Of a stretch of DNA of 43,128 nucleotides, positions 3,001 to 12,000 are shown piece after piece; within the stretch, counting starts at the first letter, position 1, and each line of letters opens with the position of its first letter. The position numbers are program-made. The DNA is from Coriobacteriales bacterium (lineage in GTDB: Bacteria; Actinomycetota; Coriobacteriia; Coriobacteriales; UBA8131): contig JAISGJ010000136.1 in NCBI GenBank assembly GCA_031263105.1, positions 1-43,128 on the forward strand, in the 5' to 3' direction.

Positions 3001-6000
3001 GCGCTTGGCGCTTGGCGAGTCCGCCTGCAGCTGGTCGAGAACAGACTGCAGGAAATGGGGACCCGCAGTCACATCGACAACAGCGAACCGCTTTGAGTCC
3101 AGCGTGTCGCGCACATCGGTAAGGAGCGCGGTCTTGCCCGATCCCCTGATTCCTGAAACCACGGTGACCCGGTTGGGGTCGTTGGGGTTGTCCAAGCCAC
3201 AGAGGAAGTCGCGAACGATGTAGTCACGACCGATAAAGTACTCAGGGCGTTTGCCGAACTGTGGATGAAACGGATTTGCTGCCAGCGCCTCCATGCTGTC
3301 GCCTGCCTTTCACGACCTCGATACTTCAGGTAGTTTTCATCGATAGTTTATCGAAGTTTCGTTATTCTAGCAAATTTTCGGCATCGGTAACGATGATGTA
3401 TCACCTGACACGCGAAAGCTGATCGTCTTCTAGTCCAGCTGCTGGCGGCGGACGAGGTCGGCGAAGAGGCCGCCTTGGGCCACGAGATCGTCGTAGCTGC
3501 CGTCCTCGGCGATGGCACCGTCCTCCAGCACGACGATGCGGTCGGCCTCCTTGATGGTGGAGAGGCGGTGGGCCACGATGATGCGGGTGCTCCTGAGCGC
3601 CGCGAGGGACTCGGAGACCTGCCGCTGCGTGATGTTGTCGAGTGCGCTCGTCGCCTCGTCGAACATGAGGATGCTCGGCTTCGACGCTATCGCGCGCGCT
3701 ATCATGATGCGCTGCTTCTGGCCGCCGGAAAGCCCGCCGGAGCCTTCGCTCACCATGGTCCGCATCCCCATGGGCATGGCGCGGATGTCGGCGGCGACCC
3801 CCGCCATCTCGGCGGCCTCCCAGGCCTCCTTGAGCGTGATCTGCGGCGCGGCGATGCCGATGTTGGAGAAGATGTCGCCCTGGAACAGGTCGCCGGTCTG
3901 CAGGACGACGCCGATGTTGCCCCTGAGAGACTTCAGGTCGAGCTTGCCCATGTCCTTCTCGTCATAGTATATCGCGCCTGCCTGGGGCGCCTCGAAGCCG
4001 AGGAGCAGCCGCAGCAGGGTGGACTTCCCGCAGCCGGTCTTGCCCACCAGGGCAAGGTACTCGCCCCGCCTGATGGTCAGATCCAGATTGTCGAGGACAG
4101 GCGGCGCGTCCTTCTCGTAGGCGAAGGAGACCCCCTCGATACGAATGGAGCCGCCCAGGGAGCGCAGTATCTCCTTGCTCTCCCCCAGCTCGGACGGCTC
4201 TTCGAGCAGGGGCTTTGCAATCTCAAGGATAGGCTTGATGTTCGCCATGGTGCCCACGATGCCGACGATCGGGATGAGTGCGCCGGAGACCTGCCCGAAG
4301 GCCGTCATGAAGGCGAAGTACTGCGGGACGTCCACGCCAGAGGTCGCCGCGACGAAATAGATGAACAGGAGACCTGCAATCCCCACCACCGCGTTCAGGG
4401 CCGGCATCAGCTTCAGCAGGACAGGCGGGTTGTAGTCGCAGCGCGCCTGCTCCTTGTAGATGTCCGCCCATTTTGCGAAGGCCCGCTTCTCGGCGCCGGA
4501 AAGCCGTAGCTTTTGGATGCCGGAGAACAGCGAGAACACGAGTGCGCTCAAGCGATTGGCAAGCGGCAGCCTCCTGCGCATGAGCGCCTGCTCCAGGCGC
4601 ACGCCCAAAAGCCCCACCGCGACCTGCAAGGCTATGGCGACGATGGCGGGCAGCGCAAGGCTTGGCGCTATGGAGAAGATCTGCGCCACATAGACCACGG
4701 AGAATATCGAGGCGAACGACGTCGTGAAGGCGACGGAGACGACGAGGGACGCGACCGAGCTCAGGTTGTTCATCCGGTTCGACAGGTCGCCTGCGCTGAA
4801 GCCCTTGAAGAAGACCGGCGGCATGTTGATGAGCTTGCCGAAGACGGCGCTCTCCATGACTATCTGCAGCTTGGTGGCGATGCGCGTCTCCGCGAGGCTT
4901 TTCAGGATGCCGAAGAGGATCGTCGAGAGCGAGACCCCCACCAGCAAAGCGGCAATCGCCCCCAGCTCCGAGAGCCGCCCCGAGGGGATCACGTGCGAGA
5001 AGATGAACTCGTTCGCCCAGGGCAGGGCAAGCCCCACGAGCGCCACGGCGACGGTCGCGAGCAGCACCAGGGAGAAGTCAGCCTTCTCGGTGCGCTCGAA
5101 CAGGAACCTGACAATGCCGCGCAAGTCGGTCGCGTCGTTGGGGAGCGGCCGGTAGAAGCAGATCGCGTCCCCTTCGAGCGCCTCTGCGGCCCGGGCGTTC
5201 ATCCTCACCTTCTGTCGACGCCCGTAATCGAAGAAGCGGTAGCCGCTCAACGTGGGGACGAGCGCCACATAGCCTCCCGCCTTGGTCTTGCACAGCATCG
5301 CCTCACTCGCGTTCTTCCACCACGCGCCCTCAAGCGACACATGGCGCCACATGACGCCGGACGGCCTGAGCAGGCGCTCGAGCCAGTCGTCGCCCTCCGT
5401 GTCGAAGTCGTCGCCCGCGTCGCGGGCGATGCCGTAGAAGCGGCATATCTCATCGACCGCGCTGCGCGTCCTTGTCTGCTCGCTCGACACGTACTCGGAG
5501 GCGACCTTCTCCCCCATGAGGACCGCCGCGAGGTCAAGGGTGGCATTGGTGAGCTGCGCGTCGTCGAAGGCAACCCGGTCGCGGATCTGTTTTTCCTGAA
5601 ATTGCACCATGTGGGTCACTCCATCGAGATCAGCTTCGTGTAGAGCCCTCCGGCGGCAAAGAGCTCCGCGTGTGTGCCGCGTTCCTGCACGCGGCCCTGG
5701 TCCAACACGATGATCTCGTCGGCGTCGCGTATCGTCGAGAGGCGGTGCGCCACGATCACGCAGGTGATGCCGCGCTCCCGTATGGAGCGGATGACCTCGT
5801 ATTCCGTCTTCGCGTCCAAGGCGCTCGTCGCCTCGTCCAAGATGAGCAGGGTGGGGTCCTGGGCCAGCGCGCACGCGATCTCTATCCTTTGGCGCTGCCC
5901 GCCCGAGAAGTTCTTGCCGCCCTCGGAGACCGTGTCGTTGTAGCCCCGTGGGCGCCGCACGATCTCCTCGTGTATCGCGGCGTCACGCGCCGCGAGGATG

Positions 6001-9000: not shown

Positions 9001-12000
9001 GCGTCGGAGCGCCCGCTGCCAGAAAACACGCATGCACACGCGTGATCACCCCGGCCGTTCCCTTCTCCACCTCCAATCGCAGGGCAGACGCAGACGCCGC
9101 CGCCCGCGACCTGCTCAAGCTCGTCTTCCGAGAGCTCCGCTGAGAGCTCCTCGATTTCTCCCATGAGCGCCTTGGCCTTCTCTACCTTCTGTGTGTCCGT
9201 CATGCTGGTTCCCTCCTTGCAGTTGATCGATTGAAACCTGTACTGCTGTTCCGCCCTGCCCCGGGCAATCCCAAGAGATCACCCGGAGCCTGCGGCACTG
9301 ACGCCCGCCGCCGCCTCGCGTATCCGCTCGGCGTATTATGTCTGACGACAGAGGAAATCGTTATTATTTCCCCGCACCTAGCATTGAACAGCCGCAAACA
9401 GGGCTGAGCTCGCCGCCGCCGCCGCCGCCGCCGGCGGAACCGCACGTGCCGGCACCGTCGGCCCCGTCAGCTCCAAACCCGCCGCTGCTGCAGGCACAGC
9501 GCAGATTGCCCGGATTCGATAAAGACCCTGGGCTTGTGGTGCCCGCGCCAAAGGCAGCACAAAAACACTCGCCGCCCTGATCGGTCGCGCTGCCATAACC
9601 GCTCGCCGCGCAGTCGCACGCACCGCCGCCCGCGACCTGTTCAAGCTCGTCTTCCGAGAGCTCCTCCGAAAGCTCCTCGACCTCCTCGGCGAGGGCTTCG
9701 ACCTTCTCCACCTTCTCTGTGTCTGTCATGACATTCCTTTCTCTCATATCTTTCGACCCCTGAAGACCGAGATCATCATCAAGCTCACCCGTGAGCACCG
9801 CTCACAACTTCACATGGTCCAAGAAGAAGCATCCGAGGGATTTCACAAAATAGAAAGCATGGTGCACGCGGTGCCGCCGCCACCGCCGGAACCCGCGTTG
9901 CCGCCAGCAGCGGCAATCATACCGGGGAGGGCGCACCCAGGGCCGGCAGTTTCGCCCCCGGACCCGCTCCCTGAGCAGGCGCAACGCAGGTGGTCTGGAT
10001 CCGATGAATCGGCGACTGTGGTGCCTGCGCCAAGGGCGGAGCAGGTGCATCGGCCGCCCTTGTCGGTCGCGCCGCCGTAGCCGCTCCCTGTGCAGTTGCA
10101 CGCGGCACCGCCCGCGACCTGTTCAAGCTCGTCTTCCGAGAGCTCCTCCGAAAGCTTCTCGACCTCCTCGGCGAGGGCTTCGACCTTCTCGGCCTTCTCT
10201 GTGTCTGTCATGGTGATGCCTCCTTTTCTTTTGAAATCAACCGATGGGAGGACGGGTCGGGTGACCCATCCTCTTTTTGCCTCCTTTTGCTCGCTCCTTC
10301 GTCGCGCTTCACTGACGCCGCATCAATACCTCCCGCCGCTGTCGCAGTCTCATATATCCGCTCGGCAAAGCCGCCGCGAAGTATCAGGCAGAAGCCCTCG
10401 TCGGGCGCCATGAGGTCGTCGGGGTGGTCCACCAGCGCAGAGGCGCGGCAGCCGGCGCCGCAGACGAGGCGCTGCTCGCACGTTTGACAGCGCTCGTTGT
10501 GCGCAAGGTAGTCCTTGAGGCGCGTGTCGATGAAGCCCATGTAGTACGAGTCGCTCAGGCACTGCGCGAGGCTCATGTCCTCGAGTCCCGGGAAGTCCTG
10601 TTGTATGTCCATACCGGAAAGCGCCATGCAGGGAAGCACCTTGCCGTCGGCGGCGATATACATGACCTGACGCGCGTGGCCGCATACGCACTGGGCCATA
10701 AGGGCCGTCTCGTCGCCCCCGCAGGACTTCTGCGCGGGTATCTGAAACGCAGGGTCGCCCCTCCTCGCGTAGAAGGCCCCGCCGAGCATGACGTTCATCG
10801 GCTGGCCGTCCTCGTAGTAGTGCGGGATGTAGTCGAGATAGGCCTCGAGCGTCTCCTCGAGGGACAGGTCGTCGTCGCCCGCGTTCTGCGCCCAGGCGCC
10901 CGTCTTGCCCGCAGGGTTCGTCTTGATGTGGGCGACGCCGAGCCCCGCGAGGTGGTTGATGCTCTCGCGCAGCGTGCCCTTGTTGCGCTGGTGCAAGGTG
11001 AGCTCCGCCCCCAACGGGAAGCCGCGCTCATGGCAGAGCGCGAGCGCACGGTTCACCTCCCGCTCCGCACCCTCGACGCCGCGCAGCCAGTCGTGGAAGC
11101 CCACGCCGTCGAAGCTCATGTTGAACTCCGGGCGGATGCCGCGCGCATCGAAGCCGTCGAGCAGCTCCGGCGTGACGAGCTTGCCGTTGGAGTAGACGGT
11201 CGTGATGCGGATGCGGTAGGCGAGCAGACGGTCGATGATCTGCCAGAAGTCCTTCCTGACCAGTGGCTCGCCCCCGGTGATCGAGACCTCGCGGATGCCG
11301 CAGCCCGCTATCTCGTCGGCTATGCTCAGGCACTTCTCCGTGGAGAGCTGGCCGTACTTGGCGTCCGGTGCCGACATGTAGCAGTGGCGGCAGCGGTAGT
11401 TGCAGTGCCCCGTGATCGACCAGTGGGCCGTGCGCATGAAGCGGGAGTCGAAGCGGCGGTATCTCTGCCATGCGTCCAGCCTGCTGCCCGGGGCGCACTC
11501 GCTGACGATCCCGCTCCCAGCAAGCTTCTCGACGGTGGGGTGCAGCCGTTCGGGGATGTGCTCCATGCCTATCTCGCCGTCGCAGCAGCTCAGGGCCTCG
11601 AAGGCATCGGCATCCAAGAATGACACGCCGTAGCTTGGGGTGAACAGCGCGAAGGGGAGCCTCTGCCAGCCCCTCAGCGCATAGCCCTTGTTCAGGATGT
11701 AGCTTGTCACAATATGGCTTCAAGCGGCAATCTGCTGTCTTTTACGGTGCCATCTTCGAGATACACCACGGGGGCATTGAGTTCGAACGGCAGGCCGCCT
11801 GCCACCTGCTCGAGCTCCTCCTCCGTGAGCTCCTTCGAGAGCTGCTTGACCTCCTCGATGAGAGCCTTGATCCTTGCCACCTTCTCTGTGTCAGTCATAG
11901 TTCCCGCTCCTTTTCTCCTAGCTGGCGTACTGGGCGTCGAGCTCGCGGGCGAGCAGGGCGTTCTTCTGGTTCTTCACGATGCGCTCAAGGTGCGTGAGGA

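Follow-up and report, generated by a model that had tools for sequence, protein, structure and literature searches.

What does a radical SAM (rSAM) enzyme encoded among short double-glycine (GG) leader peptides and a peptidase-containing exporter make, and how unusual are its substrates? The locus that raises this question lies on a contig of 43,128 nucleotides from a Coriobacteriales bacterium (JAISGJ010000136.1), analysed here in its entirety (the window, to which all coordinates refer). The initial annotation took it for a radical SAM RiPP cluster that combines precursors under GG leaders with an exporter of the peptidase-ABC type, and family scores, fold and complex prediction all uphold this. 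We put at a little over one half (about 55%) the probability that the cluster produces rSAM-modified ribosomal peptides with nested Cys-to-Gly sactionines and exports them through its peptidase-containing ABC exporter (PCAT).

Organisation of the locus

On the minus strand, a Cys-less GG-leader peptide is followed by the rSAM/SPASM enzyme, four precursors, a short membrane protein and the C39-peptidase ABC exporter. The features, in order of coordinates, are:

230..517, plus strand: fifth Cys-type precursor, 95 aa, leader MTDTQKVEK…ELEQIAGG, three CxCx3GxG units
3430..5610, minus strand: ABC permease/ATPase without peptidase domain, PCAT partner (TIGR03797 685.3, cut-off 709.4)
5616..7829, minus strand: PCAT, 737 aa (TIGR03796 896.4, cut-off 853.3; PF03412 112.9)
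7858..8403, minus strand: short membrane-anchored protein, 181 aa (TIGR03794 42.2 against 156.2)
8439..8729, minus strand: precursor, 96 aa, three CxCx3GxG units, TTG start with a strong Shine-Dalgarno sequence upstream
8934..9203, minus strand: precursor, 89 aa, three CxCx3GxG units, partner in the complex prediction
9364..9729, minus strand: precursor, 121 aa (start ATG at 9729), three units and a Gly-rich tail with a fourth CxCx3GxG
9843..10211, minus strand: precursor, 122 aa, three units, then two lone Cys (one as C-x3-G) in a Gly-rich tail
10208..11710, minus strand: radical SAM/SPASM maturase, 500 aa, with RRE-like N-terminal domain, CxxxCxxC and SPASM motif
11707..11898, minus strand: Cys-less peptide, 63 aa, GG leader shared with the precursors, core LPFELNAPVVYLEDGTVKDSRLPLEAIL

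The rSAM gene overlaps its neighbour by 4 bases at either end: the stop of the Cys-less frame overlaps its start, and the ATG of the precursor at 9843..10211 its stop. A Shine-Dalgarno sequence precedes each precursor, including the one with the TTG start. The peptidase-less ABC subunit likely starts at the ATG at 5610, directly past the PCAT stop, as judged from the sequence.

The open reading frames annotated initially are present at their coordinates, and so is the arrangement described for them, a tandem of four precursors, each bearing three C-x-C-x3-G-x-G units, and a Cys-less peptide, all under a common GG leader. The extent then given to the cluster, 5616..11898, is right for those genes and too narrow overall, since the ABC subunit at 3430..5610 and the precursor at 230..517 had both been missed. 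The latter sits beyond that range, with about 230 bases between it and the contig end, and is the genome's top match to the core profile (E 6.2e-18). Two other contigs of the genome hold a further peptide, with this leader but just one motif, and a possible remnant.

The maturase

Radical SAM enzymes carry a CxxxCxxC site for the SAM-binding 4Fe-4S cluster within a partial TIM barrel. The enzyme belongs to this superfamily; C103-x3-C107-x2-C110 is invariant in 22 relatives and PF04055 scores 69.9 against 29.5. SPASM domains hold two auxiliary clusters and have the form Cx9-15Gx4C … Cx2Cx5Cx3C … C. The enzyme falls within this subfamily, with C343-x12-G356-x4-C361, C408-x2-C411-x5-C417-x3-C421 and C441 invariant in 22 relatives, though its Pfam SPASM score of 19.5 is slightly below the cut-off of 21.5. 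The model of the enzyme (mean pLDDT 85.4) matches the folds of anSME (Z 23.3), SkfB (22.5), SuiB (22.2) and CteB (21.4), with EpeE at about 15; the alignments to anSME, CteB and SuiB run on through their SPASM domains. The alignment to SuiB covers model residues 4-444 and includes the N-terminal peptide-binding domain of SuiB. An RRE is a winged-helix-like N-terminal domain to which the leader binds as an additional β-strand. A putative RRE-like domain occupies approximately residues 1-90, and residues 4-90 of the model align with the N-terminal domains of both SuiB and SkfB.

Prediction of a complex between the enzyme and the precursor at 8934..9203 gave 0.85, against 0.20 for the best control, and passes a mark that 116 of 157 solved complexes attain, as do 2 of 215 mismatched pairs. 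At least 36% of contacts are common to the runs, with a partner pLDDT of at least 47. Confident predicted contacts join leader residues 1-35 to enzyme residues 16-53, 86-93 and 336-348. Related complexes (SuiB-SuiA, CteB-CteA) have been solved, so the pass may reflect likeness to them.

The initial annotation placed the enzyme under the cut-off of every NCBIfam maturase family, and this stands: its best score is 96.8 against 400 (ScmE), and on the scores of enzyme and relatives alike no curated maturase family fits. By profile scores, no curated NCBIfam model names either the enzyme or the core. Its second-best NCBIfam match is the StsB family (NF045574), in which membership is rejected, its 89.4 bits lying below the cut-off of 625; relatives score 65-83 bits, and another rSAM protein of the same genome outscores it (110.8 bits). 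Its identity to the StsB-like enzyme of locus L087, which itself scores 278.8 bits on NF045574, is 23%. Membership of the ranthipeptide maturase families was likewise rejected, with PapB (NF047865) at 46.5 against 340 and cores that lack Cys-x3-Asp-type and SCIFF motifs.

Distribution of the enzyme and its precursors

The initial annotation reported orthologous rSAM enzymes at 45-52% identity in 4 of 300 other Coriobacteriia, which holds, and adjoining CxC GG-leader peptides in two of them, where we find three. It had also credited the precursor family with only four other members, which does not survive: with sequences clustered at 50% identity, the core profile matches 500 representatives at E<=1e-3 and still 134 when the limit is E<=1e-10. 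Exactly three motifs occur in 134 of the best 150 of these matches. The apparent rarity is an artefact of a word-based search applied to short, low-complexity peptides.

The enzyme has at least 553 relatives in a set of 608 stretches drawn from species genomes by pattern match, mainly in gut Clostridia, Synergistaceae and Coriobacteriia. Eighty of these loci, from other species, were fetched; 58 hold triple-motif peptides of this kind, scored as an open reading frame containing two or more strict motifs. Such a peptide was not found in the other 22 of the 80. Since the flank falls short of 1.5 kb in only 10 of these 22, the enzyme clade may also accept other cores. Across the family a locus often carries 2-12 paralogous precursors.

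The window's cluster is an ordinary member of a large family that is apparently uncharacterised. The earlier case for novelty had rested on rarity and is weakened by the spread of both enzyme and precursors among gut anaerobes. Literature searches found no paper describing the enzyme or the precursor core, and the portion of the PMC10288494 supplement available to us gave no sign of a triple C-x-C-x3-G-x-G precursor family.

The core motif and its predicted pairing

The five paralogous Cys-type precursors of the window share an acidic helical leader of 35 residues ending in …ELEQ[VI]AGG, and each core contains three C-x-C-x3-G-x-G units. Conservation of the motif is far above chance. Cores picked by leader alone hold 388 CxC occurrences, of which 92% have Gly at +6, 96% at +8 and 45% at +5 and +7; the Gly content of CxC-bearing cores is 23%. 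The best 150 core-profile matches give the same picture, with Gly at +6 in 449 and at +8 in 448 of 462. Residues +3 and +4 vary freely (mostly V/A/P and L/V/A, respectively), D/E are common at +9 to +12, and 11 to 38 residues separate one unit from the next. Cys and Gly are the only invariant core residues, and few aromatics hold fixed positions.

Lone Cys bear on the pairing. Among 73 in family cores, a small sample in which many lie in C-terminal tails, Gly follows four positions on in 38%, six on in 8% and eight on in 3%. Where the outer Cys is absent the outer Gly is absent too, which fits a nested pairing and not a parallel one (0→+6, +2→+8).

The closest characterised chemistry, as far as PMC10288494 was available to us, is that of StsA (CxCxC…GxGxG) and BlaA (CxC-x4-GxG). 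In StsA of Streptomyces sparsogenes (StsA/StsB/StsC), experiments established three Cys-Gly sactionines in hairpin connectivity between Cys2/4/6 and Gly11/13/15. In BlaA (He et al. 2022, Angew; via the same source) the nested sactionines are Cys13-Gly22 and Cys15-Gly20, and BlaB is reported to be related to StsB and MftC. StsA resembles the window's peptides in its alternating Cys, short loop and alternating Gly, and in its SPASM rSAM maturase. It differs in forming a single three-ring hairpin instead of three tandem two-Cys/two-Gly units, in an inner loop of four residues instead of three, in a discrete RRE (StsC) where the window's enzyme has a fused RRE-like domain, and in that the sections of PMC10288494 on StsABC mention no PCAT. 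BlaA, compared here from its description there, is the nearest motif match to a single window unit (CxC…GxG), but has one unit, not three, and again a loop of four residues instead of three. A natural StsA-like precursor from the same phylum (L087) has four alternating Cys and then a run of seven Gly. In StsA-like peptides the acceptor stretch is 2n-1 residues for n Cys, and the window's unit, two Cys and G-x-G, agrees.

StsA and BlaA both link the sulfur of Cys to the Cα of Gly within nested hairpins, which leads us to predict two nested sactionines per unit and six per peptide. The leader would dock onto the RRE-like N-terminal domain of the SPASM enzyme, as its fold and the complex prediction suggest. 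5'-Deoxyadenosyl radicals would take the Cα hydrogen from both invariant Gly, and each Gly would be joined to a Cys sulfur as an S-Cα thioether, Cys(0) with Gly(+8) on the outside and Cys(+2) with Gly(+6) nested within. By this analogy, a finished peptide would carry three tandem two-ring mini-hairpins with six thioethers, at a mass change of -12 Da.

Several observations run counter to sactionines: (i) at three residues, the span of the predicted inner ring is one residue short of that in StsA and BlaA; (ii) the invariant Gly could be mere turns around a metal-binding or disulfide CxC; and (iii) the enzyme is not close to known Cys-Gly sactisynthases.

Ruminococcin C (RumC1-5 of Ruminococcus gnavus), in the portions of PMC9389541 and PMC10849128 available, is also a gut-anaerobe sactipeptide with tandem paralogous precursors, SPASM rSAM maturases and more than one hairpin. 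It differs in its double hairpin with four sactionines to varied acceptors and in having two maturases; the window's peptides gave no RumC model match and have no RumC-like core. TIGR04149, a GG-leader RiPP family that is rSAM-modified according to NCBIfam, is the best precursor-type match for two window precursors (22.9 and 18.9 bits), but both are below its cut-off of 25, and no maturase model paired with it is among the enzyme's best 25 matches.

We tentatively suggest, at somewhat less than an even chance, that the products form an undescribed topological class of sactipeptide. Its members would have three tandem two-ring Cys→Gly mini-hairpins in a core of 45-85 residues, made by an RRE-fused SPASM clade without a curated family in hundreds of gut Clostridia, Synergistaceae and Coriobacteriia.

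Alternative chemistries

SPASM thioether synthases of similar fold make both sactionines and ranthipeptide-type bonds (SkfB matches at Z 22.5 and CteB at 21.4), and similarity to PapB is as weak in order as that to StsB. The enzyme might form S-Cβ/Cγ bonds to the hydrophobic residues at +3/+4 or to later acidic residues, or sactionines between units, and the V/A/P and L/V/A usually found at +3/+4 and the frequent D/E at +9 to +12 could supply such acceptors. We regard this as unlikely. The +3/+4 positions are free to vary while Gly at +6 and +8 is near-invariant; Gly offers Cα only, the variable unit spacing is a poor fit for fixed bridges, and lone Cys pair with Gly at +4. A little less probable again is a chemistry other than thioether formation (epimerisation, C-C/C-O cross-links or Cys oxidation), in which CxC…GxG would bind metal or form disulfides after export. 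The SPASM fold is common to epimerases such as EpeE and C-C cross-linkers such as SuiB; barrel residues Cys137 and Cys226 are invariant in 22 relatives, and in EpeE a barrel Cys is the hydrogen donor. CxC is, moreover, a common metal-binding dipeptide motif. Against this stand the scarcity of fixed aromatics in cores whose invariants are Cys and Gly alone, the fact that Gly cannot be epimerised, and an alternating Cys/Gly symmetry experimentally established as sactionine in StsA, according to the available part of PMC10288494.

The 4-base overlap of the Cys-less frame with the rSAM start raises the question of whether this coupled upstream peptide is the true substrate, the Cys/Gly-rich peptides being unmodified GG-leader bacteriocins that use the same exporter. 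Cys-less GG-leader peptides also adjoin the rSAM gene in L007, L010 and L012; L028 has further examples, and L017 has some with low Cys content. These cores are unrelated to one another even among the closest relatives: in L007, whose enzyme is 79% identical, the core is Gly-rich and of GxxGxx type. CxC cores, by contrast, lie beside the enzyme in 58 of the 80 loci, and the first CxC precursor is likewise coupled, to the rSAM stop. We consider this explanation very improbable.

Export

The exporter genes relate the cluster to the three-gene NHLP/N11P export system (Haft, Basu, Mitchell 2010, PMC2887384). As annotated initially, the PCAT exceeds the cut-off of TIGR03796, the NHLP-type exporter family, and its partner comes near TIGR03797. 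The available text of PMC2887384 already notes N11P peptides adjoining this transporter set in Eggerthella lenta; the term 'radical SAM' is absent from that text. Many relatives' precursors have true Nif11-type leaders, TIGR03798 (cut-off 32.3) being passed by three of eight tested (45.9, 38.6 and 46.2). The window's leaders differ in being short, 35 aa, and below that cut-off: scores are 16.1-16.9 for four Cys-type precursors and 17.2 for the peptide without Cys, while the precursor at 230..517 has no match. The initial statement that the precursors have only sub-threshold leader matches is correct.

The PCAT sequence shows QMEAAECG…, …SHFVVL… and …SDP… motifs, and we take the first two to be the sites of the catalytic residues (Cys/His) of the C39 domain. 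The product of 3430..5610 matches profile positions 7-685 of the 686 of TIGR03797 (NHLP ABC subunit 2) and, by its sequence, would work like that subunit just below the curated line. Homologues of the PCAT and of the peptidase-less subunit are each found in 47 of the 80 related loci. Going by family membership, the C39 domain would cleave past the leader GG, and the PCAT, the peptidase-less subunit and the short membrane protein would together export the product. As a guess, the peptides may act extracellularly among gut anaerobes, whether as bacteriocins or as signals.

The short membrane protein departs from the NHLP system, whose HlyD adaptor (TIGR03794) is about 420 aa long: of its 181 aa, residues 16-76 match only the first 61 of 421 profile positions. 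A truncated adaptor was rejected as an explanation, because the short form is conserved, with tblastn matches in 28 of the 80 loci, some covering residues 5-180. By sequence, it is a conserved short form that resembles the NHLP HlyD adaptor at its N-terminus only.

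Gene organisation

The draft genome (250 contigs, 2.9 Mb, 86% complete, 6.5% contamination) carries the cluster on contig C217, all 43,128 bases of which form the window. The initial annotation placed the cluster at 5616-11898 and its positions hold as window coordinates; the genes it listed are present, but it overlooked a partner ABC subunit and a fifth Cys-type precursor.

Genes of the radical SAM cluster and its surroundings (coordinates, strand, product)
230-517, +, fifth Cys-type precursor, same leader, three motifs, near the contig end
745-2037, AAA_14/DUF4143 ATPase
2206-3294, AAA_16 ATPase
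3430-5610, -, second ABC subunit without peptidase domain (TIGR03797 685.3, cut-off 709.4)
5616-7829, -, peptidase-containing ABC exporter, PCAT (TIGR03796 896.4, cut-off 853.3)
7858-8403, -, membrane protein, 181 aa
8439-8729, -, Cys-type precursor
8934-9203, -, Cys-type precursor
9364-9729, -, Cys-type precursor
9843-10211, -, Cys-type precursor
10208-11710, -, radical SAM/SPASM enzyme, 500 aa
11707-11898, -, Cys-less peptide with double-glycine leader, 63 aa
11918-14719, -, M1 aminopeptidase (TIGR02412 566.7, cut-off 591.2)
41236-42444, AAA_14/DUF4143 ATPase

The radical SAM gene overlaps by four bases both the stop of the Cys-less peptide and the start of the first precursor. All precursors are preceded by a good Shine-Dalgarno sequence, and the last one (8439-8729) starts with TTG. 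The precursor at 230-517 is split from the rest of the cluster by the ATPase genes at 745-2037 and 2206-3294. A 79-base homopolymer C run (positions 4-82, 94% matches) opens the contig, a probable artefact of sequencing or assembly at the contig end; the cluster may therefore extend beyond the contig. Scans of the window with Rfam and for tRNA gave no matches. Contig C191 encodes a 68-aa peptide (locus L099:1417-1623) with the same leader and one CxCx3GxG unit, and contig C161 has a frame (locus L098:169-447, minus strand) with two units and no recognisable leader, possibly a remnant.

Conservation of the window's proteins was assessed by tblastn against 80 related loci. PCAT and the second ABC subunit each have a match in 47 of the 80, and the 181-aa protein in 28. 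Several of its alignments are nearly full-length, so the protein is not a fragment but a short version of the HlyD-like component that is itself conserved. Two further candidates were rejected as neighbours only, each with a homologue in none of the 80 loci: the upstream M1 aminopeptidase, considered as a leader-trimming partner, and the two ATPase genes at 745-3294.

Size and distribution of the family

This radical SAM RiPP family is large and common, and the window's member is an ordinary one. At least 1361 relatives of the enzyme score at E<=1e-20 among 8000 candidates. All 120 matches listed share at least 48% identity with it and bear only generic 'radical SAM protein' names, in records from Coriobacteriales, Ruminococcus, Oscillospiraceae and Clostridia. 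A relative is encoded in at least 553 of at least 608 pattern-matched stretches (one genome per species, among the matches listed). Judged by their record titles, the 80 loci kept from these are mostly Clostridia gut and rumen MAGs, with some Synergistaceae and Coriobacteriia.

In 58 of the 80 loci at least one short frame carries the strict C-x-C-x3-G-x-G motif twice or more. The strict-motif frames number 130, five of them from the window, and carry three motifs in 111 cases, two in 16 and four in three. Among the 22 loci that lack such a frame, the flank is under 1.5 kb in 10 and longer in 12. A profile built from 47 cores and searched against 1.84 billion cluster representatives matched 500 at E<=1e-3, 134 of them at E<=1e-10, which overturns the rarity that had been claimed for the precursors; 'few homologues' can be an artefact of searching with short Gly/Cys-rich peptides. 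The best 150 profile matches have exactly three motifs in 134 cases, two in 10, four in four and one in a single case. The remaining one of the 150, P0158, is a 594-aa repeat protein and was discarded as a false positive.

The enzyme had been reported at 45-52% identity in 4 of 300 other Coriobacteriia genomes. That count is correct and CxC-type peptides do lie beside these enzymes, but in three of the four and not in two; as a measure of the enzyme and precursor family the survey sampled the wrong class. Precursor number varies among the loci: a record titled as a Marvinbryantia MAG (L035:7387-11298) has 12 tandem triple-motif precursors downstream of a single radical SAM gene, and locus L014 (4309-9495) has eight.

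Leaders and the core motif

Precursors of most relatives have long Nif11-type leaders, and of eight tested three score above the TIGR03798 cut-off. In the window the leaders are a shorter variant with the common ending …EL[DE]x[VI]AGG; as first reported, their NCBIfam leader matches are all sub-threshold.

To guard against circularity, cores were picked by leader pattern alone, giving 168 unique cores, and residues were tabulated after all 388 CxC. Gly follows the first Cys at +6 in 92% and at +8 in 96%, and at +5 and at +7 in 45% each; Gly makes up 23% of CxC-bearing cores overall. In the strict-motif frames, successive motifs lie 2 to 38 residues apart (most commonly 17), and the third unit is preceded by Arg in 76%, as it is in all five window precursors.

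Other double-glycine leader peptides occur in these neighbourhoods. Cys-less or low-Cys examples with mutually unrelated cores are found in L007 (5393-5884), L010, L012, L017 and L028, and in the first three of these loci they directly adjoin the radical SAM gene. L007 is the closest relative, and its peptide has a Gly-rich, GxxGxx-type core. Different peptides, which have cores of 60-90 residues with many CxxC-type pairs and the junction …ELSDDELD[NS]V[AS]GG|GC…, are encoded at L027:2221-4575, L058:2482-2916 and L084:1367-2882; they look like a separate Cys-rich family that shares a common neighbourhood.

The radical SAM enzyme

The predicted structure (pLDDT 85.4, pTM 0.84) has a radical SAM barrel and a SPASM domain, preceded by a β/α domain at the N-terminus (about residues 1-90). 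Structural alignment gave Z scores of 23.3 for anSME, 22.5 for SkfB (model residues 8-435), 22.2 for SuiB (4-444), 21.6 for ChlB and 21.4 for CteB, and it covers the N-terminal peptide-binding domains of SuiB and SkfB. The cluster cysteines (C103/107/110, C343, C361, C408/411/417/421 and C441) are invariant in 22 relatives, as are C43, C137 and C226.

A complex predicted for enzyme residues 1-470 and the 89-aa precursor scored 0.85 against 0.20 for the best control, a value that expresses likeness and is no proof of binding because similar leader-RRE complexes have already been solved. Among solved complexes 116 of 157 reach this score, as do 2 of 215 mismatched pairs. Contact agreement between runs was at least 36% and partner pLDDT at least 47; the contacts predicted with confidence lie between residues 1-35 of the leader and residues 16-53, 86-93 and 336-348 of the enzyme.

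The scores first reported for PCAT (TIGR03796) and for the enzyme (best NCBIfam model ScmE, 96.8, cut-off 400) were reproduced. Three relatives' enzymes likewise exceed the cut-off of no NCBIfam model; release 20.0 has none for this clade, though the recently characterised maturases StsB, WgkB, PapB and DynA are covered.

Predicted chemistry

In the text available of PMC10288494, StsB is described as making three Cys-Gly sactionines between Cys2/4/6 and Gly11/13/15 of StsA, in a hairpin connectivity (C2-G15, C4-G13, C6-G11). The same text gives the BlaA links of He et al. 2022 as Cys13-Gly22 and Cys15-Gly20. The window's unit places G-x-G after two alternating Cys and a loop of three residues, and so corresponds to the n=2 case of the StsA-type design. 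By this analogy, counting from the first Cys of each unit, nested C0-G8 and C2-G6 sactionines are predicted, three times per peptide.

Natural variation in the cores lends some support to nested over parallel pairing. After lone Cys residues in family cores (n=73), Gly occurs at +4 in 38%, at +6 in 8% and at +8 in 3%; an outer Gly thus does not occur without its outer Cys.

The resemblance to the StsA system lies in substrate design and not in enzyme descent. This rests on (i) the enzyme's score of 89.4 bits against the StsB-family model (NF045574, cut-off 625), of which it is not a member; (ii) a different radical SAM protein of the same genome outscoring it on that model; and (iii) its 23% identity to the StsB-like enzyme of L087 (G202:C288), an StsA-like cluster in the same phylum. 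In the precursor of L087, which ends …GCGCGCSCDGGMGGGGGGGTG…, a loop of four residues separates four alternating Cys from seven Gly. Beside it are encoded the 535-aa StsB-like enzyme (278.8 bits, cut-off 625) and a 91-aa PqqD-like protein, a discrete RRE. Across 401 genomes from the phylum no protein exceeded the StsB-family cut-off; the best match was L087.

No description of this enzyme and precursor family was found in the literature searched, including the portions available of PMC9389541, PMC10849128, PMC11002830, PMC13289728, PMC2887384 and PMC10288494; the data sets of He et al. 2022 and Clark & Seyedsayamdost 2022 may list the enzyme. The supplement text of PMC10288494, as far as available, contains 'ELDAVAGG' twice, 'LEQVAGG' once and 'GGGGE' never, none of these with a CxC core, and the precursor family seems to be absent from it. 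The family is an uncharacterised yet common one for which a specific chemical prediction can be made. If the prediction is true, it would assign a defined chemistry to a peptide family that is very common in gut anaerobes of animals and humans: a compact thioether knot between Cys and Gly, present in repeats and formed by an enzyme clade far removed from known Cys-Gly sactisynthases. StsA/BlaA chemistry, with its rare single hairpins, would then extend to a modular 'beads on a string' architecture, and connectivity could be predicted from sequence by a simple rule, with n alternating Cys and an acceptor span of 2n-1. In gut communities the products would be candidates for narrow-spectrum bacteriocins or for signals.

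A second bacteriocin-type locus

The contig carries a second bacteriocin-type locus at 33904-39660, unrelated to the radical SAM cluster.

Genes of the second locus (coordinates, product)
33904-36234, C39-peptidase ABC exporter
36444-36830, 128-aa ORF, double-glycine site …MTYVEGG|YIATSYG…, Gly/Ala-rich hydrophobic core
37013-37327, small hydrophobic ORF
37372-37737, small hydrophobic ORF
38536-39660, HlyD-family protein

The stretch with the 128-aa ORF and the two hydrophobic ORFs has a GC content of 47-51%, against about 63-65%, and the locus resembles a class II bacteriocin island gained by horizontal transfer.
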